The notes below the pieces were generated by a model that was not told the DNA's origin, did not search any database, and saw nothing but the letters and a program-made list of their open reading frames with translations. The position numbers and the translations under genes are program-made. A stretch of 64,000 bases of DNA, from the IMG/VR virus record IMGVR_UViG_3300014835_000073. One strand, written 5' to 3'. This DNA is from a virus. Below, piece by piece: positions 22,933 to 39,484 of this stretch (position 1 is its first letter; every line of letters starts with the position of its first letter).

Positions 22933-24410
22933 CTACCTTTCATATAAGTGCCCTCAAATGATTTAACCCATGCAATGCCATTCCATACATATTGTACTCC
23001 CGTGTACGTATTTGTTTGCCAAATCATGGTGTCGGCCTCTTGCGCAGCGTTAAATATAATGTGCCATGTGATGCCATTCCATTCAATTATATCATTGGTA
23101 TGCGCAATAAGATCAGTGTTGGCTATTGATTTCCATGAGTCTGCGCCATCGGAGTTGGTAATATCACCGATGTCTTCAATTAACAAATATCTAATGCCAA
23201 TTATAATTGCTTGGTCTATAGCTTCTTTCAATGGTCTTTTTGGATTATACTTAGTTGGGTCAATAATTGCATCAAATGTGCCTGGACTAGCTGGTCTAAC
23301 ACTAGTTGACAGATTGAAATTAACATCAGTGTCTAGGTTACCATTTGAATCAATGCCAGTATTTGGGATTAGTGAATCAATGTCCCATGATGCTAGTAAT
23401 GTGGTATTATCTAACGCATCAAGTGTCACGGTTCCAGAAATTGATGAACCATTTGGTTGTGTGAGAAATATTCTGCTGGAACCACCCGCGAATTGACCGG
23501 GGTATTGATCTAATAATACTTGCCAATTTAATGGCGGACCTTGCCGTATGCCAATGTGAATTGATGGTTCTCGTGGGATAACACTTTCGGTTGGATTTAT
23601 TAAGACTACTTTATTATCATATACCTGAATGTTAAAATTGCTAATTGTAGTAGGTATAACTGCGATAAGGTCGCTAAGTAGCGCATTTTGACCAGCTGCC
23701 GTTGCACCAGCTAGGTCAAGTCCCTCGATGTATGTTGAGCTATTGTCAAAGGTACTAAACACGTTGGCGATTATGTTAGTGATAACACCTAAATGTTTAA
23801 GTTTAGCTGGTGGACTAATCCATATTGGTGTGCCTAATGTCAGTGTGCCTATGTCAATTGGTGTGTCTACTCCAATTGGTACTTGTTTACTACTCCAAGT
23901 AATGTCATTTAACGCCAGTATTGTCAAACTAGTCCAATCGATATAGTTGTCATTTGTTTGTAATTCTAGATTGGGGTTAAATAATACTAAAATTTGTTCT
24001 AATAATTGTAATTTTTGGTCAGTATTGGCAGTCCATATATCAACCTTCATTGATAACTTAAATGGGGTAGGCATTAGACGTTCTACTGTGTAATTTCTAC
24101 CTTGAGTATTATTGTAACTAGTGTCATCAACACCGCGTTCCCTGATATGAACTTTGCTTACGAAAGTGGCATCTGACAATCGTTCACGATCAAGTGCCAA
24201 TCCGGTAATATATACACTTATTCTTGGTACTGAGTTTATTTTATTTTCAGAATTTTGCCTAATTATACTAGCAACTTGTCTATCAGCATCACCGTATATC
24301 ACTGGTACTCGATGCAATGAGCCATCACCATGTTTAACAGTGAAATTACTGAAGACTCGGATTGTTTGTGTTAGATATCTTCTTATTTGTGAATCGTAAA
24401 AATGTTGCAT
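22914..24410 (-). CDS. tail completion / sheath stabiliser (T4 gp15-like)
   Basis: MQHFYDSQIRRY…RVPVIYG…PRISVYI…MPTPF…DIWT…QLLEQILVLFNP; start at 24410 overlaps the upstream stop (TAATG). Confidence 0.7.
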   Translation of the reverse strand: MQHFYDSQIRRYLTQTIRVFSNFTVKHGDGSLHRVPVIYGDADRQVASIIRQNSENKINSVPRISVYITGLALDRERLSDATFVSKVHIRERGVDDTSYNNTQGRNYTVERLMPTPFKLSMKVDIWTANTDQKLQLLEQILVLFNPNLELQTNDNYIDWTSLTILALNDITWSSKQVPIGVDTPIDIGTLTLGTPIWISPPAKLKHLGVITNIIANVFSTFDNSSTYIEGLDLAGATAAGQNALLSDLIAVIPTTISNFNIQVYDNKVVLINPTESVIPREPSIHIGIRQGPPLNWQVLLDQYPGQFAGGSSRIFLTQPNGSSISGTVTLDALDNTTLLASWDIDSLIPNTGIDSNGNLDTDVNFNLSTSVRPASPGTFDAIIDPTKYNPKRPLKEAIDQAIIIGIRYLLIEDIGDITNSDGADSWKSIANTDLIAHTNDIIEWNGITWHIIFNAAQEADTMIWQTNTYTGVQYVWNGIAWVKSFEGTYMKGSWRLEL

Positions 24411-25795
24411 TATAAATCTGCCTGTGGTTTTAATATTTTTGATAAACTTTGACGTTGCATTTCGCGATGGTTGTAAAACGTAATCGTCCATTGACCATTT
24501 TCCGGGATAGTTTGTTCATCCGGTAAATTAATTTTAAGTTTATTCGTGTTGTAAATCTCGATTATATTATCATAATCGGAAATGACATAATCAAGCACCA
24601 TTGGGCCTAATTTCAACACAATATATAATGCATCCACTACGATCATATTTGTTTCAATAATTGAATCTCCCTTAGTTAGGAAGATTAAATCGCTGCCCAT
24701 TGCTTCAACGTATGTAAAATTGGTATTATTGATAAAGCCTGTTTTAAGAGTATCTCTAGTATCAGTGTTGGTCATAGTTGTCCTAGTGACATCTTCTACA
24801 TTAACCCAGCTAATGTCATCAAACCTGAATAATCTATTTGGTATAAAATCAGTTCGTAAAAAGAAATCATCCTTTCCAGCTGACATGGGAAATTGTATTC
24901 CATGACCAAAATCATAACCATTGTCTGGAAAACCATCTCCCAATAGATATCCAGTATAACCGGATCTAACAGGTCTTCCGTTGTTTTCACTGGCATGGTA
25001 TGAAGCATTGCTAGCATCAAGTGTTGTCATATCTGTTGTATTGATAACTGGTAATCCGGTTAGTGGATCTACTGCTAATGTGTAAAATTGTCTAGTTTCG
25101 TAACCGCTTTTGGGTGCCTCAGCTTCGGCTTGGTTCAAAATAGCATCATTAATTTCTAATTCTTTATTTCTAGTGCTTAGCAATTCACGTAATGTTACGT
25201 CGGTTGCTTCTCCAGCTGGTTGATCAAGGATATCGGAAAATTGTTGACTATCCGTTACTTTTTTAATTTTTAATCTATATAAATGTGGATACCAAGTAGC
25301 AGAAAAACCTTCACTTGCTCTACCTACATCTTCTATGACATAATATCTAGGCAAACTTATGTCAAAATCATTAAGCGCAAAATCATCTTTTAGGTGAGGT
25401 AGTTCTATAACATCACCGCTTATTGGTTTTCTGCCTATATATGTGATAAAATCATTGATATGAACTGACATGTATAATGTATCATTATCTATAAATAGTC
25501 CAAACTGACTTAAGTTAAAATCAACATTTTGTACATTATAAATTCCGCGAATCTTATATATTTCTTGATCATATTTTCTATCACGGTTTTCTAAAAATAG
25601 TAAATCTTGGATGTTTGTTTCCCTGACCGCATCGTATACCGGTTGGTCGGCAGTGCCATCTGTCATTAATTTTGGTCCTAGAAATTTATGAATGTATACA
25701 TCAGTTCCGCCAACTTGAAACATTCTAGATATGTTTCTGTCAATAAATCGATAATTGTTTCCTTTCTCTGGCTGGTATAGACTTAATCTGGGCAT
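24410..25795 (-). CDS. neck / head-closure protein (T4 gp14-like)
   Basis: GGTDVYIHKFLG…DLLFLENRDRKYD…LSQFGLF…GRK…GDVIELPHL; divergent from the gp13-like gene. Confidence 0.65.
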   Translation of the reverse strand: MPRLSLYQPEKGNNYRFIDRNISRMFQVGGTDVYIHKFLGPKLMTDGTADQPVYDAVRETNIQDLLFLENRDRKYDQEIYKIRGIYNVQNVDFNLSQFGLFIDNDTLYMSVHINDFITYIGRKPISGDVIELPHLKDDFALNDFDISLPRYYVIEDVGRASEGFSATWYPHLYRLKIKKVTDSQQFSDILDQPAGEATDVTLRELLSTRNKELEINDAILNQAEAEAPKSGYETRQFYTLAVDPLTGLPVINTTDMTTLDASNASYHASENNGRPVRSGYTGYLLGDGFPDNGYDFGHGIQFPMSAGKDDFFLRTDFIPNRLFRFDDISWVNVEDVTRTTMTNTDTRDTLKTGFINNTNFTYVEAMGSDLIFLTKGDSIIETNMIVVDALYIVLKLGPMVLDYVISDYDNIIEIYNTNKLKINLPDEQTIPENGQWTITFYNHREMQRQSLSKILKPQADL

Positions 25796-26385
25796 TTGTT
25801 AATTCCTGTAGTGTTATGATATTTATCAATTTTTTGCTTACATTTATTAAAATGATATCGTGTCATGTTGCTACCTTTGCCAGCTATCTCGCAGAATGGA
25901 CATGTTATTGTTGCATAGACTCTTTCTTTGGCCGCCTTATACATCCTTAACTTAGTTTCTGCTGATTTAGGTTTAGACATTTTAGCTTTGGTTTTTGCTG
26001 ATATGTTTGGTTGTGCAGCAGACATTCTTGCACGGGATTCTGCTGATGGTATAATTCCGGGACTTCCTTTTATTCCACGATCAGCTAATCCATTTTCTAA
26101 TATTAAATTAGCCCATTCAGTGGAATCAACTATATTATTTTCTTTTGAAAAAAGTTAAGGCGTGTTAAGTTATTAATTTTTTATCGGTATATGGTTCAGA
26201 TAACCAAATAGTTTCCACAAACACTATTCCGTGCTTATTGATATGTTTTTTCCAATATGTTCCTGGAACCTTTGTATTTGATAGGATCTTTTGATTTAGT
26301 CTTGTCGAAGTATTTTAGTTTTATAACTGCGTGTTGTTTTATATAAAACTATGTTGGGGGTAGTGGTATTATCATAAATATTCAT
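25783..26385 (-). pseudogene. decayed GIY-YIG (Seg-like) homing endonuclease with NUMOD3-type tail
   Basis: Stitching frames gives PT*FYIKQH…LKYFDKT…DPIKYKGS/GTYWKKHINKHG…VETIWLSEPY…T*…ENNIVDSTEWANLILENGL, then KMSKPKSAETKLRM…TCPFC…NMTRYHFNKCK; at least two stops and several frameshifts. Confidence 0.85.
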
Positions 26386-26449
26386 AGCGTATTCCATATA
26401 CGCTAGTGTAGATGGGAATTACAGTTCCGTGAACTACATTCTTATTTAT
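26383..26449 (-). promoter_or_regulatory. late promoter plus conserved double-hairpin leader of the GIY-YIG gene
   Basis: ATAAATA-AGA-ATGTAGTTCACGGAA-CTGTAA-TTCC-CATCTACA, then hairpin TAGCGTA/TACGCTA overlapping the ATG; same core as 33946-34015. Confidence 0.7.
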
Positions 26450-26478
26450 CAGATAAATATAGTTGGAGAACTAATAAT

Positions 26479-27249
26479 ATGTCTGAAAGCACATCACTGA
26501 TAGAACGAAATAAAGTATTTGAATATGTAAGAGCTATGTTGGGCGACGGTATGATTTCAATCGATTTAGATCCAATACATTATGAAACCGCATTAGACAG
26601 GGCATTGACTCGGTATCGGCAACGTAGCTCAAATGCAGTTGAGGAAAGTTATTGTTTTATAGAATTGACACAAGACCAGAATGAATATCGATTACCTGAT
26701 GAAATCATTGAGGTCCAGAGTATATTTCGTCGCTCAATTGGTTCACGATCTGGAATGGGTGCCGGTGGTACATTGTTTGAACCATTTAACTTGGCATATA
26801 CCAATACTTACCTGATGAGTGGTAGTATGATGGGTGGATTGGCAACTTATGAAATGTTTGCCGGGTATCAAAAATTAGTTGGTCGGATGTTTGGTAGTTA
26901 TATCGAATTTAAATGGAAACCACAAAGTCACATCCTTACTATTCTCCAACGTCCATTTGCTCAAGGTGAACAAATATTACTAAAAACGCATAATTATCGT
27001 CCAGATTTTGTGTTACTTACTGACATATATGCCAAGCAATGGTTGCGTGATTATACATTGGCGACATGTAAAATTATGCTCGGTGAAGCTAGAAGTTTAT
27101 TTGCTAGTATCGCTGGTCCGACTGGTGGTGGCATTACCCTAAATGGTGCTGAGATGAAAACTTCTGGTAAGGAAGATTTATTGGCACTCGATAAAGAATT
27201 GGAATCATATGTCTCGGGCGGAACGCCTGTGTCATTTATTATTGGTTGA
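26479..27249 (+). CDS. neck protein (T4 gp13-like)
   Basis: LGDGMISIDLD…ALDRALTRY…W(LR)DYTLA..K.MLGEAR..F..I.GP.GG.TLNG. Confidence 0.75.
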   Translation: MSESTSLIERNKVFEYVRAMLGDGMISIDLDPIHYETALDRALTRYRQRSSNAVEESYCFIELTQDQNEYRLPDEIIEVQSIFRRSIGSRSGMGAGGTLFEPFNLAYTNTYLMSGSMMGGLATYEMFAGYQKLVGRMFGSYIEFKWKPQSHILTILQRPFAQGEQILLKTHNYRPDFVLLTDIYAKQWLRDYTLATCKIMLGEARSLFASIAGPTGGGITLNGAEMKTSGKEDLLALDKELESYVSGGTPVSFIIG

Positions 27250-27298: not shown

Positions 27299-27943
27299 AT
27301 GACAAATAAAAAATGTATTATTGGAGTAGTGGGTTTGATAGGTTCTGGTAAAGATACCGTGGCTGATTATCTTGCAAATTTTCATAATTTTAGACGTGAA
27401 TCATTTGCGTCGAGTTTAAAAGATGCTATTTCTGTTATTTTTGGCTGGGATAGGGTATTATTGGAAGGCCGGACTAAACAATCTCGTGAATGGCGAGAAC
27501 AGATCGATGGTTGGTGGTCGGAAAGATTACAAATGCCAAATTTAACACCTCGGTGGATCTTGCAATATTGGGGCACTGATGTATGTCGTAAATCATTTCA
27601 TGATGATATATGGATTGCCAGTCTAGGGCATAAGTTATCAACCAGCGCAGATAATATAGTTATTTCTGATTGTAGATTCCCAAATGAATTTAAGGCTATT
27701 CATGAAGCCGGTGGCATATTGATTAAGGTGGTGCGCGGTGACGCCCCTGTCTGGGTTAATGATGCTATTATTGCCACTAGTTCATTATCTGCCGATGAAG
27801 TCATTGCTGCTACTACACGGCTGTCTGAACTTGGTATACATCATAGTGAATGGGCGTGGGTAGGATTGACTGTTGATACTGTGATATATAATAATGGGAC
27901 AATTGATGATTTGTATAACCAAGTAGCTACTATAGTTGGTTAA
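27299..27943 (+). CDS. deoxynucleoside monophosphate kinase (T4 gp1-like)
   Basis: GLIGSGKDT P-loop; FASSLKD, TPRWILQYWGTDVCR, ISDCRFPNE. Confidence 0.9.
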   Translation: MTNKKCIIGVVGLIGSGKDTVADYLANFHNFRRESFASSLKDAISVIFGWDRVLLEGRTKQSREWREQIDGWWSERLQMPNLTPRWILQYWGTDVCRKSFHDDIWIASLGHKLSTSADNIVISDCRFPNEFKAIHEAGGILIKVVRGDAPVWVNDAIIATSSLSADEVIAATTRLSELGIHHSEWAWVGLTVDTVIYNNGTIDDLYNQVATIVG

Positions 27944-28051: not shown

Positions 28052-31000
28052 ATGGCTCAACTTAGCTCACCAGGAGTAAGTGTAACAGTTGTCGATGAAA
28101 GTTTTTATACCCCGTCGGCACCGGGAACTGTCCCGATGATTGTTATTGCTTCAGAGGAAAATAAAACAAACGGAGCTGGTACTGGTACCGCATCCGGTAC
28201 ATTAAAAATAAATGCAGGAAAGGTATATTTACTTACTAGTCAAAAAGATTTATCAGATACTTTCGGTACTCCAAAATTCATAACCGATGTGAGTAATAAT
28301 CCAATACACGCAGGTGAACAGAATGAGTATGGCTTACAAGCGGCATACAGTTATTTAGGAGTTAGTAATCGTGCATATGTAGTACGAGCGGATGTTGATT
28401 TGGCTCAGTTGACAGCACGTACAACACCACCAAGTGGCAATCCTACCAATGGCACTTTTTGGTTTGAAACTGCTGCTACTAAATTTGGCATTTTTGAATG
28501 GAACGCCGCGTCCGCTTTGGTGATAGGTGGTCAAACATTTACTGTCAAACAGCCAGCTGTTATTACATCATCGGTGTATGTTGATAATTATCCATCGGCG
28601 CCTGTTCCAAAATCTAGCTTTGGCGCTACTGGTAGTTATGCAATTGTGGCAGTTAGTACACTACTTAAATTGTGGTACAAAAAACCAATTACCGCAACTC
28701 CTGTTAGTTGGGTAGAGGTTGGTACTACAGAATGGGCAGCTAGTTGGCCAGTTGTGTTAGGTACGGTATCGGCTCCAGTGTTAACATCCGGTGATACGAT
28801 TAGTATTAATGGCACTTTTGTAACTGGTGGTACACTTGATGCTTTAATATCCGACATTAATACTAAGTTAGTTTTAGTTGGTATTACCGCAGCTGCTCCG
28901 CGTGGTAAACTAGAATTGTATTCGGGTAGTGAATCAATTGTAGTTGCTGGCGATGTTGTGGTGCTTGTGAAACTTGGATTAACGGCAGGTACATACGCTG
29001 CTGTTGCATTGAGTATTGGGTCACATACGCAAGTGCCTCAATATAAATCAAGTGCTGGCAATCGACCAACTGGATCAATTTGGGTCAAGACTACCTCACC
29101 TAACTTGGGCGCTGATTGGATTATTCGTCGTTATAACAAAACTTCCGTTATCTGGGAAAATCTACCAGCGCCAATGTATTCCAGTAATGCAGCGGCATTG
29201 GCAGGTATTGATTCAACTGGTGGTGGTATTAATTTACCAGCAAACACTATATATATTAAAACAAATGATTCAGAATCAAATCCACCGTTGGTAAACTTTA
29301 AGTTATATCGCCGTAGTACAGTAGGGACAACTACTATTGTATCTGCGCCAATAACTGCTAGTACATTGGCGGCAAACGCTACTTATTCTTTTACGATTTC
29401 TGAGACCAAGTTAGGCACTGCGGAATATTCAACTCCGGTAACTATTAGTGTTACGATTGGTAGCACCCCAAGTGCCATTGTTACAGCTGAGTTAATTTTG
29501 GCTAGTTTGCAAAATTCACTGAGCGATTCAAATATCGTTGCGACGATGCTTAATGCGACTAATCAAATATCAATAAGTCATGAAAATGGCGGTGATTTTA
29601 AATTGGTTGATGGTGCGGTTCATCCATTGTTATCTCATTTGTTTTTGACTTCAACTACTGCAAATTATTTTGTTGATCCATCCGGTATTCCTAACTCATA
29701 TGTTGCAAGTTTGTGGACATCATTATCTGATGATAAATTAGGTGGATTTGCAATTGCAACTGGTGATGCCCCAGTTTCATCAACTCCAGACGGTGAATTG
29801 TGGTATGATAGCATCGTTGATGAAGTTGATATATTAATTCATAATGGTACTACTTGGGTTGGTTATTTAGATGCTACTGCTGTGACGATGAATCATGCGG
29901 GTATTTCTGGTGAGACAGATACAGACCCGGCTGGTCCATTAGTTAAAGCTGTGCCACCAACTACTCAAAGTGATGGTACGCCGTTGGCAAATGGTGATAT
30001 ATGGGTCAGTACTGCTGATACTGAGAATTATCCAATGATATATCGGTATAATAGAGTTATTGCTAAGTGGGTATTGCTTGATAATAGTGATCAAACTACT
30101 GAAAATGGCGTATTATTTCATGATGTGCGTTGGGATGTGACTGGTCAATCAGCTACTGCTAGTCCAATTCGTGAATTACTATCTAGTAATTTTATTGATT
30201 TTGATGCACCAGATCCTGCGTTATACCCAATGGGTATGTTATTGTGGAATTTGCGCAGAAGTGGTAACAATGTAAAGAGATTTGTGGTTAATTATGTAGA
30301 TGTACTAGGTAGAAATATAAGATTCAATAATAATGAACCTATGCACGATTACTATCCACATAAATGGGTTACTGAAGCAGGTAATCAAGAAGACGGTTCC
30401 GGTACGTTTGGCCGTAGATCACAGCGTAAAGTGGTTGTACAAGCATTGCAAGCATTGGTTAACAGTAATCAGCAAATTCGGGATGAAGATAGTCGAGTAT
30501 TTAATTTGTTAGCATGTCCTGGATATCCAGAATTGGTCGGTGAATTGATTGGGCTTAATACGGATCGTGGATTGACCGCATTTGTTGTTGCGGATGCCCC
30601 AGCTAGATTAACTGCCGACGCTACTTCACTGAGTAATTGGGGCAATAACACTAGTTTGGCGCTTGAGGATAATGATAAAGGGTTGGTATCATACGACGAA
30701 TATATGAGTTTCTTCTATCCTTGGGGTTATTCCAGTGACAATCTTGGTAATAATGTAGTAGTTCCACCTAGTCACATGATGTTACGGACGATTGCGTTAA
30801 GTGATAACGTAAGTTATCCGTGGTTTGCGCCTGCTGGGACACGTCGTGGTGGTATAAACAATGCTAGTTCGGTTGGTTATGTTGATGCTGGTGGTGAATT
30901 CCAAGCAGTTGCTTTGAATACTGGACAACGTGATACATTAGCTAGTATAAAAGTTAATCCATTATCATTTATTACTGGCAGCGGCTTGGTTAATTATGGC

Positions 31001-31354
31001 CAACTTACTCGTGCTAGAAATGCAAGTGCTTTAGATCGTATTAATGTAGCTAGACTGGTTATATATTTACGTAGACAATTGTCACAATTGTCTAAACCTT
31101 ATATCTTTGAACCCAATGACAAGATAACTAGGGATCAATTAAAACAAGCAGTTGAAAGTTTAATGCTTGAATTAGTTGGACAACGTGCTTTGTATGACTT
31201 TATTGTCGTATGTGATACTAGTAATAATACACCTGCTAGAATTGATCGCAGTGAATTATATTTAGATATTGCAATAGAACCAGTAAAAGCAGTGGAATTT
31301 ATTTACATTCCATTACGATTACAAAACACTGGCGAAATTAAAGGTAAGGTATAG
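28052..31354 (+). CDS. gp18: contractile tail sheath protein (gp18-like)
   Basis: LSSPGVSVTVVDES N-terminus; WFAPAGTRRG, RINVARL, FEPND, IEPVKAVEFIYIP; TATAAATA at 28012-28019. Confidence 0.95.
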   Translation: MAQLSSPGVSVTVVDESFYTPSAPGTVPMIVIASEENKTNGAGTGTASGTLKINAGKVYLLTSQKDLSDTFGTPKFITDVSNNPIHAGEQNEYGLQAAYSYLGVSNRAYVVRADVDLAQLTARTTPPSGNPTNGTFWFETAATKFGIFEWNAASALVIGGQTFTVKQPAVITSSVYVDNYPSAPVPKSSFGATGSYAIVAVSTLLKLWYKKPITATPVSWVEVGTTEWAASWPVVLGTVSAPVLTSGDTISINGTFVTGGTLDALISDINTKLVLVGITAAAPRGKLELYSGSESIVVAGDVVVLVKLGLTAGTYAAVALSIGSHTQVPQYKSSAGNRPTGSIWVKTTSPNLGADWIIRRYNKTSVIWENLPAPMYSSNAAALAGIDSTGGGINLPANTIYIKTNDSESNPPLVNFKLYRRSTVGTTTIVSAPITASTLAANATYSFTISETKLGTAEYSTPVTISVTIGSTPSAIVTAELILASLQNSLSDSNIVATMLNATNQISISHENGGDFKLVDGAVHPLLSHLFLTSTTANYFVDPSGIPNSYVASLWTSLSDDKLGGFAIATGDAPVSSTPDGELWYDSIVDEVDILIHNGTTWVGYLDATAVTMNHAGISGETDTDPAGPLVKAVPPTTQSDGTPLANGDIWVSTADTENYPMIYRYNRVIAKWVLLDNSDQTTENGVLFHDVRWDVTGQSATASPIRELLSSNFIDFDAPDPALYPMGMLLWNLRRSGNNVKRFVVNYVDVLGRNIRFNNNEPMHDYYPHKWVTEAGNQEDGSGTFGRRSQRKVVVQALQALVNSNQQIRDEDSRVFNLLACPGYPELVGELIGLNTDRGLTAFVVADAPARLTADATSLSNWGNNTSLALEDNDKGLVSYDEYMSFFYPWGYSSDNLGNNVVVPPSHMMLRTIALSDNVSYPWFAPAGTRRGGINNASSVGYVDAGGEFQAVALNTGQRDTLASIKVNPLSFITGSGLVNYGQLTRARNASALDRINVARLVIYLRRQLSQLSKPYIFEPNDKITRDQLKQAVESLMLELVGQRALYDFIVVCDTSNNTPARIDRSELYLDIAIEPVKAVEFIYIPLRLQNTGEIKGKV

Positions 31355-31363
31355 TACCATTAT

Positions 31364-31395
31364 CTGGGAGAGTGTAGTTAACTACACTCTCCCAG
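31364..31395. repeat. 32-bp perfect palindrome
   Basis: CTGGGAGAGTGTAGTT|AACTACACTCTCCCAG between sheath and tube genes. Confidence 0.9.
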
Positions 31396-33150: not shown

Positions 33151-33516
33151 ATGTCATTAAATCTTCCAATCCAGTCAGCCGATACCACTATTGATGTTAA
33201 GCAATTCTTTGATAAATTCTTTATTAATCAAATTAGTTTTCCCAGTGGGCAAATTGACGCGGTAGTTGGGTTTTTTTTAAAAAGATCATTTGATGTAGAA
33301 AGTGCCAGATCAACTGCTATTGTATTATTGAATCAAGCTAGGACAGATAATGTAAATGTTTTTGAATTACTTGATACCTTAACCGGATTAACTGATCTAC
33401 AATTAAGTCAGGTTGTGGCTCAGGTATTGAATGTATATCGAGAAAACGTTAGTTTATTGGGGTATCGAATTGCGCCATTGATTGATACCTATGAAGTTAG
33501 GAATATATTAATATGA
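33151..33516 (+). CDS. hypothetical protein
   Basis: 121-aa ORF within the structural operon. Confidence 0.6.
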   Translation: MSLNLPIQSADTTIDVKQFFDKFFINQISFPSGQIDAVVGFFLKRSFDVESARSTAIVLLNQARTDNVNVFELLDTLTGLTDLQLSQVVAQVLNVYRENVSLLGYRIAPLIDTYEVRNILI

Positions 33517-33953
33517 GTCATAAATTTGCTAGGGGTAAATTCACCCCAAAGAATCCAGGTAAGTACATTGGTACTAAGATACCGCAATATAGAAGCTCAT
33601 GGGAATTGAATTTTTGTATGTTTTGTGATACGAGCAACAGTATTCAAAAATGGGCTAGTGAAGCAATATCCATACCGTATCGTGATCCATTGACTGGTAG
33701 AAATACCGTTTATGTGCCGGACTTTTTCATTCAATATTTGGATAAGAATAATAAAATTAATACTGAATTGATAGAAATAAAACCATCCAGTCAGCAATTG
33801 TTGGAGAAGGTTGGGAAGAGTAAATTCAATCAAGCGCAGTTTATAAAAAATCAAGCAAAATGGAGTGCCGCGTCAAATTGGTGCAAACAGCAAGGTATTG
33901 TATTTAGGGTGCTAAATGAAACTGATTTGTTTATGAATGGCAAGGCTAAATAA
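33513..33953 (+). CDS. gp4: head completion nuclease (T4 gp4-like, TnsA/PD-(D/E)xK fold)
   Basis: GKFTPKNPGKY…YRSSWE…WASE…IPY…YVPDF…IEIKP…KW.AA..WC. Confidence 0.85.
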   Translation: MSHKFARGKFTPKNPGKYIGTKIPQYRSSWELNFCMFCDTSNSIQKWASEAISIPYRDPLTGRNTVYVPDFFIQYLDKNNKINTELIEIKPSSQQLLEKVGKSKFNQAQFIKNQAKWSAASNWCKQQGIVFRVLNETDLFMNGKAK

Positions 33954-34015
33954 AGATGTAGTTCACGGAATGGGGATTCCTAACTACTTTAATGTCACTG
34001 ATGACATCAACGATG
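33946..34015 (+). promoter_or_regulatory. late promoter plus conserved double-hairpin leader of the HNH gene
   Basis: CTAAATA-AAG-ATGTAGTTCACGGAA-TGGGGA-TTCC-TAACTAC, then ATGTCA-CTGA-TGACAT hairpin before ATG 34013. Confidence 0.7.
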
Positions 34016-34243
34016 ATATTTATCGATAACAAAGATACCAGATGGTATTTCAATATAATTAATAGAGCTAAACCCAGACATCTCACGGAATATTCTGAAA
34101 ACCACCATATTGTACCAAAATCACTGGGTGGAAATAACAGTAAAGAAAACCTAGTTCAGTTAACTGCCAGGGAACATTTTATATGTCATCGATTGTTGAT
34201 TAGAATGCTAGTTGGTGAAAATAAAGGAAAAATGGTATATTAA
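34013..34243 (+). pseudogene. truncated HNH homing endonuclease
   Basis: MIFIDNKDTRWY…ENHHIVPKSLGGNNSKENLVQLTAREHFICH; stops after 76 aa and is followed by an inverted repeat. Confidence 0.8.
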
Positions 34244-34378
34244 TTTTTGAAATAGTGGATAGTGGAATAAGTAACATATCTACTATTTCAAAAAAGATAT
34301 GGATATCTTGGGATAGAATACGATTGATTTTGGACAGACGAACATTATTCGCCGAATAATGAAACGATAAATAATAAC

Positions 34379-34858
34379 ATGAAGAAACTAGAAGATATAC
34401 TCAATTTACCTACCAGTCAAGTGATCATGCGTACTGCCCGTCAGAAGGTACCGCCAGTGATTATCCCTGCTACTAATTTTAGAAATGTATCAGATTTTGA
34501 TAAAATATCAGCGGCATTGCCCCCAGTGACTGGGTTAGGTGACATCAGTGATACCGAATTTGATGAATTATCACAACGGGCAACATCTGCGTATGATGAC
34601 CTCATGGATCTTGGATTAAATGTCGAGGCTAGATATTCAGCTAGGATATTTGAAGTGGCATCAAGTATGCTCAAGAATGCAATTGATGCTAAATCTGCCA
34701 AGGTAGATAAAAAACTCAAGATGATAGAATTACAACTTAAAAAACAGAAATTAGATAATGATGCTAGTTCAGATGATCGAGGCATTGACATACAAGGGGA
34801 AGGTTTTGTCGTTAGTGACCGCAATAGTCTTCTTGAAAAATTGAAAAATATGAAGTAA
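34379..34858 (+). CDS. probable terminase small subunit
   Basis: Helical protein upstream of TerL (DLMDLGLNVEARY…A..MLKNAIDAK…DRNSLLEKL); position-based call. Confidence 0.5.
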   Translation: MKKLEDILNLPTSQVIMRTARQKVPPVIIPATNFRNVSDFDKISAALPPVTGLGDISDTEFDELSQRATSAYDDLMDLGLNVEARYSARIFEVASSMLKNAIDAKSAKVDKKLKMIELQLKKQKLDNDASSDDRGIDIQGEGFVVSDRNSLLEKLKNMK

Positions 34859-36188: not shown

Positions 36189-37802
36189 ATGGCAACAAAA
36201 TCATTAGATGGGGCACTAACTAAAAAAGCTCACATAAAACAGCAATGGTCAGAAGAACAGATACAAGATATGCTTTCCTGTATGGACCCAGAACTTGGGT
36301 ATTTGTATTTTGCTAGGAAATTCTTTCATATACAGCATCCAGTTAAGGGCAAATTGCTATTTTCCCCATTTGAATATCAAGAACGACTACTAAGCAGTTA
36401 TCATAATAATAGATTTAATTGTAATCTACTACCACGTCAGAGCGGTAAAGCATTAAGTCTTGATACCAAACTTCCAACAGCGTCGGGCGATTGGGTTACT
36501 ATGGGCACTATTGCGGTAGGTGATCTCATCGTAGGCTCAGATGGTAAATCAACAATGGTCACTTTTGCTACTGATGTGATGCATAATCGCCCATGTTTTG
36601 AGGTGGAGTTTGATACCGGTGAAATTATTGTCGCTGATGCTGAACATTTATGGAAAGTTGAAAGTGTAAACCAAACATTTGGTACAAGTATTCTGACTAC
36701 TGTCGAAATTAATCAGTACATGATAACGCATTTGTCAACTGATACATTGTACATTGACATTACTCATCCAATTCAACGTGTAGAACAGTCATTGGTAATA
36801 CCTCCTTATATATTGGGTGTTTGGTTAGGCGCTGGTGATACTAATAGTGGTAATTATCGACAGTCAATTGAAAACATTGAGATAATTGATTTTATCGCAC
36901 TTAATGGATATTCAGTGTCATCGGTAGTTGGTGTAGTTGATAGTGAAATGTACGTAATTAATGAACTGAATGTGAAATTATCTGACTTTAATTTATTGAC
37001 AAATAAGTATATTCCATCTATATATCTAAAATCGGCAATAAGACAACGAGTGGAATTATTGCAAGGATTGATGGATTCTATTGGTAGTTGTGATTGTCTA
37101 GGTAATTGTGAATTGAGTTATGTTGAAAAATCAATGATATTAAGTATTAGGGAATTGTTATCATCATTGGGTATAAAAACAAACCTCCATACTACGATTA
37201 TAACTGGGATTGTCTGGTATAACCTGACATTTAGAACAATTGATTATGATGTATTCAAATTAACTACTAAGTTGACCAGCCAAAAATCGTGTGCTGATAT
37301 TGTAGAAAATAAACGGCTGTATATTACTGAGATACGATCAATTAATTCAGTTCCGGTAAGATGTATTCAAGTTGATAATGAATCACATATGTTTTTGTGT
37401 GGTGATACAATGATACCAACGCACAATACAACCTGCGCTTCAGCATATCTGTTATGGTACGCGATGTTCCATCCTGATCAAACCATATTGGTAGCTGCTC
37501 ATAAATTCACTGGCGCTCAAGAAATTATGCAACGAATTAGGTATGGGTACGAATTATGCCCTGATTTCTTACGAGCTGGGGTAATTAGTTACAATAAAGG
37601 TTCTATGGAATTTGATAATGGATCACGCATTGTGAGTCAGACGACTACTGGTACCACCGGTCGTGGTATGAGTATTTCATTACTTTACTGTCTTGATGGC
37701 GATTCTACTGTTAAAATACGAAATAAAATAACATTGGTCGAGGAAGATATTACATTACATGCGTTATACGTCCGATTATACAATCCTATACATATTATTT
37801 AA
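36189..37802 (+). CDS. terL: terminase large subunit, N-terminal part, with a cis intein and the N-half of a split intein
   Basis: PRQSGK|intein|TT Walker A; SQTTTGTTGRGMSISLLY then CLDGD… intein start. Confidence 0.9.
   Translation: MATKSLDGALTKKAHIKQQWSEEQIQDMLSCMDPELGYLYFARKFFHIQHPVKGKLLFSPFEYQERLLSSYHNNRFNCNLLPRQSGKALSLDTKLPTASGDWVTMGTIAVGDLIVGSDGKSTMVTFATDVMHNRPCFEVEFDTGEIIVADAEHLWKVESVNQTFGTSILTTVEINQYMITHLSTDTLYIDITHPIQRVEQSLVIPPYILGVWLGAGDTNSGNYRQSIENIEIIDFIALNGYSVSSVVGVVDSEMYVINELNVKLSDFNLLTNKYIPSIYLKSAIRQRVELLQGLMDSIGSCDCLGNCELSYVEKSMILSIRELLSSLGIKTNLHTTIITGIVWYNLTFRTIDYDVFKLTTKLTSQKSCADIVENKRLYITEIRSINSVPVRCIQVDNESHMFLCGDTMIPTHNTTCASAYLLWYAMFHPDQTILVAAHKFTGAQEIMQRIRYGYELCPDFLRAGVISYNKGSMEFDNGSRIVSQTTTGTTGRGMSISLLYCLDGDSTVKIRNKITLVEEDITLHALYVRLYNPIHII
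36450..37427 (+). mobile_element. class-3 (Ala1, W-C-T) intein with degenerate LAGLIDADG endonuclease
   Basis: Starts ALSLDT; block B DAEHLW, block F VRCIQV, block G IPTHN|T; endonuclease motifs LGVWLGAG and GLMDSIG. Confidence 0.85.
37689..37802 (+). mobile_element. split intein N-fragment (37 aa)
   Basis: CLDGDSTVKIRNK…LHALYVRLYNPIHII* at the TerL Walker B site. Confidence 0.8.
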
Positions 37803-37832
37803 GTGACGAGTTTGCGTTTGTATAACTAGATT

Positions 37833-37861
37833 CAACTACCACGACCTGACGGACGTGGTTT
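37833..37861. mobile_element. IS200/IS605-like terminal hairpin remnant
   Basis: CAACTACCACGACCTGACGGACGTGGTTT resembles IS605/IscB-type end hairpins; no transposase nearby. Confidence 0.45.
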
Positions 37862-38074
37862 TACGTGGCAACTGATAAAAAATCTGAAAATGATACCTTG
37901 GGAAGAAAGTTTAGAAAAATCTAGGAATTCGTCAATAAAATTAAATGACCTTGATAGAGGTTAAATATACAATTGAGCAATCGATTGCTCAATTTGAATA
38001 CGTTATTCAGTGTATAACTGAAGCAATCGCTAGTAACTTGCCTGTTAGTGGTGCGTATATTTTGGAAAAATTGA

Positions 38075-39484
<1,410 letters not shown>

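Follow-up and report, generated by a model that had tools for sequence, protein, structure and literature searches.

What does a structured leader do that stands, within one phage genome, before two endonuclease genes of different families, and on which strand does it act? In the window, by which we mean the whole 64,000-nucleotide stretch of viral DNA analysed here, the exact 15-mer ATGTAGTTCACGGAA has two matches only, one on the minus strand (copy A) and one on the plus strand (copy B). Both copies consist of an NTAAATA box, a 5-nt spacer, hairpin 1, a second hairpin whose sequence differs between the two, and the ATG. A preliminary description of this DNA took the shared segment for a cis-regulatory RNA, a processing site or a mobility signal of a family of endonuclease cassettes.

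The two copies in the window and their family

Hairpin 1 is built alike in copies A and B: a CAC bulge separates the outer stem of 6 bp from a GGAA/TTCC inner stem, and the loop of 6 nt varies. In copy A it occupies 26408..26437 on the minus strand (GTAGTT / CAC / GGAA / loop CTGTAA / TTCC / C / ATCTAC) and carries one outer-stem mismatch, ATCTAC vs AACTAC, a single U·U at 26412; contigs of two other lake studies have 26412 A>T, the canonical base, which restores AACTAC in those populations. Upstream lies the late-promoter box GATAAATA (26443..26450, minus strand), recognised by its sequence and assigned to the endonuclease mRNA, and downstream lies hairpin 2 (26386..26404, minus strand; AGCGTAT / loop ATGGA / ATACGCT), which adjoins the ATG. 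A second late-promoter box, CATAAATA, is found at 26373..26380 on the plus strand, opposite to the gene; it is the reverse complement of TATTTAT, which forms endonuclease codons 2-4. The antisense RNA predicted for copy A would be ~64 nt long (26386..26449, plus strand), its start being placed 5-6 nt past the box and its end in a U-rich tract. Hairpin 1 as it reads on the plus strand would be the terminator hairpin of this RNA, and the complement of the box at 26443..26450 would form part of its U-rich tail. The gene behind copy A (25831..26385, minus strand) is a decayed seg-like GIY-YIG homing endonuclease with frameshifts and stops. By tblastn it matches the entire L316 endonuclease (residues 1-247 of 247) in two frames, -2 and -3; its N-terminus, MNIYDNTTTP, is typical of its class, and population indels lie at 26177, 26262 and 26353.

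In copy B the late-promoter-like box GCTAAATA (33945..33952, plus strand), likewise assigned by sequence, overlaps the stop codon of an upstream TnsA-like gene (33513-33953); it is a CTAAATA variant, one position off the family consensus ATAAATA and found in 7 of 150 members. Hairpin 1 follows at 33958..33987 (plus strand; GTAGTT / CAC / GGAA / loop TGGGGA / TTCC / T / AACTAC) and hairpin 2 at 33989..34010 (plus strand), with 9 pairs and the loop CTGA. One of these pairs is A·C on the plus strand and G·U on the opposite strand, and the 9-bp helix is retained where the Shine-Dalgarno sequence has been lost. The second late-promoter box, GATAAATA (34017..34024, minus strand), lies in codons 2-4 (MIFI) of the HNH gene, and the predicted antisense RNA would measure ~66 nt (33946..34011, minus strand). 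The gene itself (34013..34243, plus strand) is a 3'-truncated HNH homing endonuclease (Pfam HNH, E = 2e-4), 64% identical to residues 1-76 of full-length relatives of 215-229 aa; it retains ~77 codons, compared to about 215-260 in full-length relatives. Since the gene of copy A is frameshifted relative to the L316 endonuclease and that of copy B truncated to ~77 codons, the earlier statement that both reading frames have decayed holds; both copies have nevertheless kept the fold and both boxes despite their broken genes.

Each cassette has a further late-promoter box GATAAATA at its 3' edge, which would serve the next gene: 25820..25827 (minus strand) for gene 24410-25795 in cassette A, and 34366..34373 (plus strand) for gene 34379-34858 in cassette B. 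Bracketing by late boxes, a property of both window cassettes, was rejected as a rule of the family, where a late box stands at the 3' edge of only 16% of cassettes (1.7% of background windows). Also rejected was a third, degenerate copy in the terminase gap at 37803-38074, where neither sequence reading nor an unfiltered model search found one.

Covariance model R1, which finds 47 copies in five uncultured genomes, scores the two copies at 77.1 bits (E 4e-15) and 72.5 bits (E 5e-14) and gives no other match with E < 1 in the window. The shared leader of the preliminary description is real and beyond chance: 227 stretches of uncultured viral contigs in IMG/VR yielded 181 distinct copies, many of them related by descent, so that the counts do not equal independent events. 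Half of the 15-mer matches in IMG/VR were unrelated, being chance matches or one unrelated coding repeat. The carriers are uncultured lake phages, whose genomes of 259-372 kb contain 4-13 dispersed copies each. The family has two conserved motifs, GTAGTTCRCG and CCAACTAC, and the apical parts differ among all 11 parsed copies of one genome. Nearly every copy on these uncultured viral contigs stands before a homing endonuclease gene, and the enrichment upstream of endonucleases expected of such a leader is essentially total among the collected copies. By their N-termini these endonucleases fall into no fewer than four unrelated classes, two of GIY-YIG type, one HNH and one HNH_3. The module is portable, as had been proposed: all four main endonuclease classes are found with leader subtypes, which vary in the bulge (CAC or CGC) and in the inner stem (many forms), and pairs of HEG-plus and HEG-minus alleles show that it comes in together with the cassette.

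No part of the window matched Rfam at gathering thresholds, and permissive Rfam scans of two copies returned chance-level matches only. Among cultured phages there was neither a megablast match to the 10-kb region nor a blastn match to the leader, and none of T4, Aeh1, RaK2 and Synechococcus phage B23 contained a match to model R1. The nearest virus record (G001), an 11.9-kb fragment, is without a copy. Contigs from the two metatranscriptome runs in which this phage occurs (X19 and X20) cover parts of the sheath gene and its neighbours, and the leaders lie outside their span.

Promoter boxes and the strand of the fold

T4-type late promoters initiate transcription late in infection and depend on gp55/gp33. 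Their mark is an 8-bp box resembling TATAAATA, set roughly one turn of the helix before the start site and followed by an AT-rich segment; at the sequence level the gene-strand box of the module appears to fit this definition (PMC2988020). The box NATAAATA is present on the gene strand in at least 90% of copies, and the AT-rich spacer between it and hairpin 1 is 5 nt long in 165 of 178 members. In the same window NATAAATA also precedes late genes, sheath and tube among them, at a distance of 13-44 nt. A -35/-10 pair of an early sigma-70-type promoter was not found in the module, whose boxes are of the late type.

Read along the gene strand, the module runs from the box NATAAATA over 5 nt to hairpin 1; a hairpin 2 of 8 bp then encloses the ribosome site, and CAGC with the start codon leads on to TATTTAT, the reverse complement of the gene-strand promoter box. 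In 144 of 150 copies TATTTA comes after the start codon, and it occurs there in all three reading frames (MxIY, MIFI and MYL), giving unrelated enzymes a prefix such as 'MxIY' or 'MSS..IY'. This second box lies 5 nt from the conserved CAGC in 112 of 172 copies and 4-6 nt from a conserved G, and its first base is without the G preference seen in the gene-strand box. Together with the gene-strand box, 73-77 nt away, it forms an exact inverted repeat. Judged by its sequence and position, the second box is a putative promoter on the opposite strand, within or beside the beginning of the target gene and pointing towards that gene's own promoter. The preliminary description had missed it.

The conserved structure claimed for the module is genuine and supported by covariation. 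In an antisense alignment (A2), 19 pairs were 97.7% paired, compared to 35-49% in slid controls, and there were 132 double-change cells, compared to 29.8 in shuffles, with none of 500 shuffles reaching 132. The conserved secondary structure belongs to the antisense strand. Hairpin 2 forms a family-wide helix with compensatory changes; in 146 distinct hairpin 2 regions, read on the gene strand, we counted 927 Watson-Crick cells, 224 A·C or C·A cells and not a single G·U or U·G. As all non-Watson-Crick pairs of this hairpin are A·C on the gene strand, G·U pairs exist only on the opposite strand. Furthermore, pair 4, which lies between two A·C positions, covaries (AU 107, UA 12, GC 11); the helix thus runs through these positions, which requires G·U on the opposite strand. 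The invariant A·C pair is itself beyond the reach of the covariation test. The mean folding energy of the hairpin 2 region was -7.1 kcal/mol antisense compared to -3.0 kcal/mol sense, and the antisense fold was the more stable in 171 of 172 copies. G·T wobbles are compatible also with a single-stranded DNA structure of that strand.

Hairpin 1 carries the same kind of signal. Its inner stem covaries through at least 16 variants, and the outer stem and bulge are nearly invariant. The middle base of the bulge is associated with the supposedly unpaired 3' base (G/C 59, A/T 20, A/C 42, G/T 0; Fisher p = 3e-7), and the extra pair that they form is GC, AU or GU only on the opposite strand. The wobbles of hairpin 2, the extra pair of hairpin 1 and the steadier opposite-strand fold of the hairpin 2 region all speak against a 5' leader of the endonuclease mRNA, the term under which the preliminary description had presented the segment, as the best reading. 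Of the Shine-Dalgarno GGAG, one half belongs to the loop of hairpin 2 and the other to its stem, on the 3' arm. Read on the opposite strand, hairpin 1 gives a mirror-image hairpin with a U-rich stretch behind it (5-7 U in the following 9 nt in ~87% of copies). The stem of this mirror hairpin is interrupted by bulges and averages ~-8.4 kcal/mol, which makes termination uncertain, and a simple terminator scan did not call it.

Two other readings of hairpin 1 were rejected. The ATG of an ATG-TAG mini-ORF that would open the conserved 15-mer is GTG, TTG, AGG or another triplet in many copies, and its TAG is altered in compensatory stem variants. A kink-turn at the CRC bulge was discarded on sequence inspection, there being no tandem G·A pairs beside the bulge.

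A predicted antisense RNA and the competing readings

A conserved fold on the strand opposite the gene makes it probable that a small antisense RNA restrains the nucleases. We therefore propose, with a probability of roughly 60%, that the module is a portable cassette of ~90 bp in which T4-type late promoters face each other ~75 bp apart and a predicted antisense RNA checks the nuclease. We base this on the anatomy of the module, its covariation, the strand bias of its wobbles, the frame independence and promoter-like spacing of the second box, and the association with endonucleases. The gene-strand box NATAAATA would start the endonuclease mRNA, with the G that opens hairpin 1 as its predicted first base, and the reverse-complement box (TATTTAT in the first codons) would start a small RNA of about 60-66 nt on the opposite strand. 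This RNA would begin with GCUG, fold into an 8-bp hairpin with the anti-Shine-Dalgarno CUCC at its top, and end in the mirror image of hairpin 1 and a U-rich tract (consensus AUUUUUAUUUAU), together a candidate intrinsic terminator. If both boxes fire and the transcripts start and end as predicted, the small RNA would be the complement of the nuclease mRNA over its whole 5' untranslated region, ribosome-binding site included. Pairing may then block translation of the nuclease mRNA or lead to its decay, and a potentially harmful nuclease would be held low or limited to a time window.

A wider form of this proposal, which we hold more tentatively and at slightly less than even odds, is that freshwater jumbo T4-like phages possess a family of late cis-antisense RNAs (~65 nt) that brake unrelated endonucleases, each RNA being cognate to its cassette and also acting in trans. 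The basal parts of the RNA are common to the cassettes and the apical stem-loops unique, which would provide each nuclease with a cognate antisense partner. A module that outlives its nuclease gene could act in trans on related cassettes, amounting to a multi-copy inhibition of selfish nucleases.

Were the module a 5' leader on the sense strand only, with the opposite strand untranscribed, hairpin 1 would form a stem-loop at the very 5' end of the mRNA, either stabilising the message or offering its invariant outer stem and CRC bulge to a conserved protein of phage or host, and hairpin 2 would partly mask the Shine-Dalgarno sequence and keep translation low. The promoter box stands 5 nt before hairpin 1 in 93% of copies, which would place hairpin 1 flush with the 5' end, and a near-invariant outer stem and bulge with a covarying inner stem are typical of a protein-recognition site. 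The inclusion of GGAG in hairpin 2 also suits this reading, and a late promoter combined with a hairpin at the ribosome-binding site is the known design of I-TevI, segB and mobE (PMC2988022). However, hairpin 2 is weak on the gene strand, where two A·C mismatches sit within the covarying 8-bp helix, and the complete lack of G·U there beside 224 A·C cells runs counter to selection on the mRNA. A sense leader also leaves unexplained why TATTTA recurs in three reading frames at a promoter-like spacing and why the helix survives the loss of both the Shine-Dalgarno sequence and the gene. We consider this reading unlikely. A different role for sense RNA, the gating known from T4, where the late promoter lies inside the hairpin, would have AUAAAUA pair with the UAUUUAU after the AUG, so that a three-way junction hides the start region in read-through transcripts and late transcripts stay translatable. 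The inverted repetition of the boxes would permit such pairing, which is present in the minimum-free-energy folds of several members, and such gating is on record for I-TevI, e and soc (PMC2988022). Yet the box helix has a mean pairing probability of 0.25, exceeding 0.5 in only 23% of copies, the accessibility of the AUG is alike in read-through and late RNA (0.45 and 0.46), and positions beside the boxes do not covary (p = 0.15 and 0.12). Given a weak helix with flanks that lack covariation, and a strand bias of the wobble pairs that it does not explain, we rejected gating by a box-to-box helix as highly improbable.

The module might instead act as DNA, promoting the insertion and swapping of endonucleases by recombination, with a fold that has no function in RNA; it would then be a late-promoter analogue of PeSL cassettes, or a hairpin on single-stranded DNA. 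Its 4-13 dispersed copies per genome, the reassortment of leader types among endonuclease classes and the position of some cassettes exactly at resident late-promoter boxes, with a further late box at the 3' edge, would all agree with such a role; DNA hairpins tolerate G·T wobbles, and PeSLs set a precedent for shuffling via short promoter/terminator motifs (PMC2839356, PMC4122927). Homologous exchange, however, requires sequence identity and not compensatory pairing, and the differing apical parts of all 11 parsed copies in one genome lower recombination. Selection for a fold with strand-specific wobbles suggests a single-stranded molecule, and the fixed geometry to the Shine-Dalgarno sequence and the AUG favours a role in expression. 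An element acting on the DNA level is in our judgement very unlikely, and neither a mobility signal nor self-cleavage gained support.

Known systems and what the module may mean

In P22 sar/ant, a promoter in the 5' end of the gene gives rise to a short antisense RNA over the ribosome-binding region. In IS10, RNA-OUT (69 nt) is antisense to the part of the transposase mRNA where translation begins (PMC5006887). The cassette resembles IS10/Tn10 RNA-IN/RNA-OUT (PMC5006887) and P22 sar/ant (PMC5415839) in having a promoter within the 5' end of the gene that faces the gene's own promoter, and in the short antisense RNA, predicted here, that is complementary to the ribosome-binding region of the mRNA. 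As an antisense RNA of this type is able to act in trans, repression would grow with copy number. The promoters of the cassette are T4-type late boxes, whereas those of IS10 and P22 sar are sigma-70 promoters, and the gene targeted encodes a homing endonuclease, where IS10 has a transposase and P22 an antirepressor. Furthermore, the predicted cassette RNA has two hairpins and spans the whole untranslated region, and the module is common to unrelated genes and has no sequence similarity to either system.

The endonuclease genes of T-even phages (I-TevI, I-TevII, I-TevIII, segB) and mobE of Aeh1 likewise have a late-promoter box directly upstream and a hairpin that involves the Shine-Dalgarno sequence, presumably to limit nuclease expression (PMC2988022). 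In contrast to these leaders, the box of the cassette lies upstream of both hairpins and not inside an inhibitory hairpin, the sense hairpin is weak with the fold selected on the opposite strand, there is a second, facing box, and model R1 gives no match in T4 or Aeh1. Closer in setting are hairpins that, in the accessible part of the account by Dassa et al. (2009), contain TATAAATA and two conserved complementary motifs upstream of metagenomic free-standing endonucleases (PMC2677866). As described there, these loci too come from uncultured aquatic phage-like DNA with GIY-YIG and other free-standing endonucleases, and conserved motifs pair in a 5'-region hairpin next to a T4 late-promoter box; the likeness rests on this description, sequence identity with our family being unproven. 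The module is absent from Rfam, as expected of an uncharacterised motif, but given these related hairpins its novelty is incomplete. The loci in that account are split-intein 'fractured gene' loci, whereas a crude screen downstream of the cassettes gave 0 candidates for C-intein signatures, and the hairpin is read there as a sense translational attenuator, with no antisense RNA considered in the accessible text.

The PeSL (promoter-early/stem-loop) cassettes of T4-like phages (PMC2839356, PMC4122927) share with the module a short conserved composite motif of promoter/terminator-like kind, a high number per genome and a position next to variable genes, where genetic exchange could plausibly take place. 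Unlike the module, they carry early sigma-70-type promoters, have no tie to endonucleases and are proposed to act through recombination, with no antisense product proposed. By its boxes the module would fall outside the PeSLs, in which an early sigma-70-type promoter is joined to a terminator stem-loop. An antisense RNA over a homing endonuclease gene is on record for a T4-like phage: CfrI of cyanophage S-PM2 overlaps such a gene and is co-expressed with it (Millard et al. 2010, via PMC2984593). As summarised in that secondary source, CfrI differs from the cassette in its length of ~225 nt and in being a single locus, which connects the endonuclease gene with psbA, where the cassette is portable and present in many copies; from the same summary, no sequence relation to the cassette is apparent.

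Large phages have homing endonucleases as their main selfish genes, and in T4 these are controlled by promoter choice, hairpins at the ribosome-binding site and autorepression. To our knowledge, how phages outside T4 that tolerate a dozen of these enzymes keep them harmless is poorly understood. If the proposal is correct, homing endonucleases would be subject to a further, new level of control, exerted by an antisense-RNA cassette that they share, and phage biology would gain a multi-copy family of small RNAs. The odd N-terminal prefixes of unrelated nucleases (MxIY, MIFI, MSS..IY) would then be the footprint of an overlapping promoter. The module would also be a compact natural case of a promoter that doubles as the terminator tail of an opposing transcript, and the strand on which selection has acted can be tested directly in strand-specific metatranscriptomes from lakes in which such phages abound.

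The leader in the window and its family

The leader at 26383-26449 (copy A, minus strand) precedes a seg-like GIY-YIG gene, and that at 33946-34015 (copy B, plus strand) an HNH gene. They share the exact 15-mer ATGTAGTTCACGGAA, which has no third exact match in the window, and the same order of parts: an NTAAATA box, a 5-nt spacer, hairpin 1, a short linker, a second hairpin and the ATG. In both, hairpin 1 has an outer stem (GTAGTT/AACTAC), a CAC bulge, an inner stem (GGAA/TTCC) and a variable 6-nt loop, the 3' arm of the outer stem reading ATCTAC in copy A and AACTAC in copy B; the second hairpins are unrelated in sequence. In contigs from other lakes, 26412 A>T regains the canonical stem in cassette A. 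Both genes are decayed with the leader folds kept, as originally described: the gene of cassette A carries a frameshift and that of cassette B is shortened to ~77 codons. One-base indels at 26177, 26262 and 26353 in contigs from other lakes fall within the decayed GIY-YIG gene, which may therefore be intact or broken differently in other populations. The 3' edge of both cassettes is a further late box serving the next gene; such a box was found at this edge in 16% of family cassettes vs 1.7% of background windows. At 26441-26460, two late-promoter boxes stand back to back (TTATTTATC-A-GATAAATA), the minus-strand one directed at cassette A and the plus-strand one at the gene at 26479-27249, and the same divergent pair lies immediately 5' of the host gene in an endonuclease-free allele (contig stretch L041).

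The window belongs to an uncultured myophage of the T4 superfamily, with a dNMP kinase gene (27299-27943), a tail sheath gene (28052-31354) and a large terminase (36189-37802) with ~37% identity to RaK2-like jumbo phages and Synechococcus phages B3 and B23; its DNA turns up in nine studies' metagenomes from lakes and freshwater. The terminase is split over two ORFs (36189-37802 and 38075-39484) with a 270-bp gap between them, and tblastn covers residues 7-500 of the first. A split intein at this place was remarked on in the preliminary description; no leader copy lies in the gap. RNA-library contigs from two runs join opposite strands at 27575-27728 and 31186-31370 (snap-back forms), which suggests that transcripts form strong hairpins close to the dNMP kinase gene and where the sheath gene ends. 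The RNA contigs of this phage lie outside both leaders.

Leaders were collected from IMG/VR contigs with four pattern scans, each fixing another part of the motif and leaving the remainder free. Combined, these yielded at least 181 distinct leaders, and at least 251 instances in at least 227 stretches. Shared descent among copies inflates the counts. A covariance model (R1) built from 70 of the listed leaders scored the two window copies at 77.1 and 72.5 bits and gave no other match with E < 1 in the window; it detected 13, 4, 13, 8 and 9 copies in five viral genomes of 259-372 kb and zero in T4, Aeh1, RaK2 and Synechococcus phage B23. In the 70-sequence alignment, two-sided changes occupied 137 cells vs 35 in shuffles, with 0/500 shuffles as high. 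BLAST against ~50,000 cultured phage records gave no match, and no Rfam family matched the leader. Further homologs and covariation, both proposed as checks in the preliminary description, were thus found, the Rfam comparison it called for matched no described RNA family, and it is virtually certain that the leader is a real, widespread, covarying element.

On the gene strand (mRNA sense), the consensus runs from NATAAATA through a 5-nt spacer (165 of 178 listed copies) into hairpin 1 (GUAGUU, CRC, a 4-bp inner stem with G as first base, a 4-12 nt loop, the inner 3' arm, C/U, AACUAC), followed by YCUAA, hairpin 2, CAGC or CAAC, (A)AUG, 1-2 nt and UAUUUAY. The inner stem has at least 16 different sequences and pairs completely in 166 of 181 listed copies, pairing being no criterion of any scan or filter. 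The outer stem is almost invariant, and its rare variants are compensatory (GCGAUU/AAUCGC, GGUCUU/AAGACC, GCAGUU/AACUGC, GUGGUU/AACCAC, AUAGUU/AACUAU). In one genome, the apical part of hairpin 1 differs among all 11 parsed copies and the basal part is common to them. The 6-nt loops are non-random family-wide, with the loose gene-strand consensus Y-K-G-G-M-A; on the opposite strand the loop is C-rich, recalling the C-rich loops of Shine-Dalgarno-targeting small RNAs.

Endonuclease classes and cassette mobility

We examined 180 ORFs behind listed leaders and sorted the 157 usable ones by N-terminal class. Seg-like GIY enzymes (PHROG 314, homing endonuclease) made up 53/157, GIY-YIG enzymes of the YYIGKG type 40/157, HNH enzymes starting MIFINNKYT (PHROG 655) 27/157 and HNH_3 enzymes 17/157; the remainder formed several small groups, mostly with NUMOD3 or zinc-finger DNA-binding parts. 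The contention that the downstream genes belong to different families therefore extends to at least four main classes. Both bulge types and many inner-stem variants were found with each of the four, so module and enzyme genes have been reassorted. The ORFs are short and decayed behind 15 listed copies, and in one stretch (L317, 142-1900), the sole such case among listed leaders, a short ORF remnant and then a 558-aa terminase-like ORF follow the leader; here the module seems to have outlasted the endonuclease.

Pairs of alleles with and without the endonuclease gene show that the module is part of the inserted cassette. Between L060 and L336, the endonuclease-free allele has only the upstream stop codon in common; in two further pairs (L318 vs L040, L034 vs L041), a GATAAATA box is already resident in the free allele and the cassette lies between this box and the host gene. 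In L060 and L336, a sigma-70-like promoter of the host gene (TTGACA-type -35, 16-17 nt, TATAAT-like -10) lies 3' of the site with or without the cassette, which here inserted 5' of an early promoter and came with its own late box. Three other stretches (L050, L067, L085) represent the L034 locus with the endonuclease reduced by deletion to 20 codons; their gene-strand box and Shine-Dalgarno are degenerate, but they retain the TATTTAT box, hairpin 1 and an antisense hairpin 2 of 7 bp. Many endonucleases (L284, L034, L060, L280, L320) share a C-terminal motif, ~(R/K)(W/Y)HF(D/E)NC, and in L284 an internal deletion fuses the leader's first codon to the motif-bearing end.

The strand of the fold

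Hairpin 2 is an 8-bp helix that includes the 'linker' CUAA and the UCAG of CAGC, and its arms co-occur, UCUAA with CAGC and UUUAA with CAAC. Across 146 distinct regions, the gene strand has 927 Watson-Crick cells, 224 A·C/C·A, 0 G·U/U·G and 17 other; an A·C cell becomes G·U when read on the complementary strand. Flanked by the two A·C positions, pair 4 nevertheless covaries (AU 107, UA 12, GC 11), so the helix is continuous, which is possible on the opposite strand only. Consistent with this strand, RNAfold gave -7.1 kcal/mol antisense vs -3.0 sense for the hairpin 2 region, and the antisense fold was stabler in 171/172 listed copies; hairpin 1 is equally stable on both strands. The base in the middle of the hairpin 1 bulge and the 3' base taken as 'unpaired' read G/C 59, A/T 20, A/C 42 and G/T 0 (Fisher p = 3e-7), again a pair that forms in every case on the opposite strand only. 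When the reverse-complement alignment of 63 sequences (A2) was scored over 19 pairs, 97.7% of its cells were paired, 13 pairs had double changes and 132 cells were compensated vs 29.8 in shuffles (0/500), while slid controls paired at 35-49%. A single-stranded DNA structure of the opposite strand would leave an identical wobble bias.

Two putative facing late promoters and a predicted antisense RNA

In the window, NATAAATA lies 13-44 nt 5' of late genes, among them the sheath gene and its downstream neighbour and the gene of the giant virion protein. T4 late promoters consist of an 8-bp TATA box, roughly a helical turn 5' of the start site, and an AT-rich segment downstream (PMC2988020), which the gene-strand box fits, and the 5-nt spacer predicts the G opening hairpin 1 as the first base of the mRNA. 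Just past the start codon, 144/150 listed copies have a second box, TATTTA, 73-77 nt from the first; TATTTAT is the late-promoter core in reverse complement. It occurs in all three frames (nnT ATT TAT, MxIY; ATA TTT AT, MIFI; TAT TTA, MYL), with MIFI or MYL starts within one and the same HNH family, and the constraint is therefore on nucleotides, not protein. In a subclass with the ATG further upstream, the conserved CCAGC is part of the codons TCC AGC (MSS), 5-6 nt ahead of TATTTAT. The second box is separated from the conserved C of CAGC by 5 nt in 112/172 listed copies, by 6 nt in 26 and by 4 nt in 14, the geometry of the gene-strand box.

We put the probability that the fold belongs to a small antisense RNA from this second, facing late promoter at roughly 60%. 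The portable structured leader first proposed thus stands in outline, with its fold most likely that of an antisense RNA. Read 5' to 3' on the opposite strand, the module has a late box, a 5-nt spacer and GCUG, an 8-bp hairpin with the anti-Shine-Dalgarno CUCC on top, UAGA, the mirror of hairpin 1 (11 pairs, two single-G bulges) and the consensus AUUUUUAUUUAU, the layout of a self-contained small-RNA gene of ~60-66 nt. The tract after the mirror hairpin has 5-7 U in 9 nt in ~87% of listed copies; this hairpin is a candidate terminator, termination there being uncertain, and the predicted tail would be complementary to the promoter that faces it. The complementarity between this RNA and the endonuclease mRNA would be complete across the untranslated region, ending a few bases short of the AUG. 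Copies A and B keep both boxes and both helices next to dead genes, and copy B has lost the Shine-Dalgarno and kept a 9-bp helix, which fits an RNA function independent of the adjacent gene's translation.

The T-even arrangement of a late promoter and an RBS hairpin (PMC2988022) is similar in purpose, but the module does not have its defining geometry. Dassa et al. 2009 report hairpins with TATAAATA and two conserved motifs complementary to each other, 5' of metagenomic free-standing endonucleases, and interpret them as sense attenuators (PMC2677866); these may belong to the same family, and the listed module loci gave no sign of a split-intein context. PeSL cassettes (PMC2839356, PMC4122927) are a parallel as portable promoter/stem-loop motifs, and in cyanophage S-PM2 an antisense RNA is known that overlaps a homing endonuclease gene (PMC2984593). 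The closest analogues of the predicted RNA are P22 sar (PMC5415839) and IS10 RNA-OUT, a trans-acting RNA of 69 nt that brings about multi-copy inhibition and is complementary to the transposase mRNA at its translation initiation region (PMC5006887). By analogy with these two RNAs, we infer that the predicted RNA would repress the nuclease. The module as predicted would be a known kind of cis-antisense control, in a new variant on homing endonucleases.
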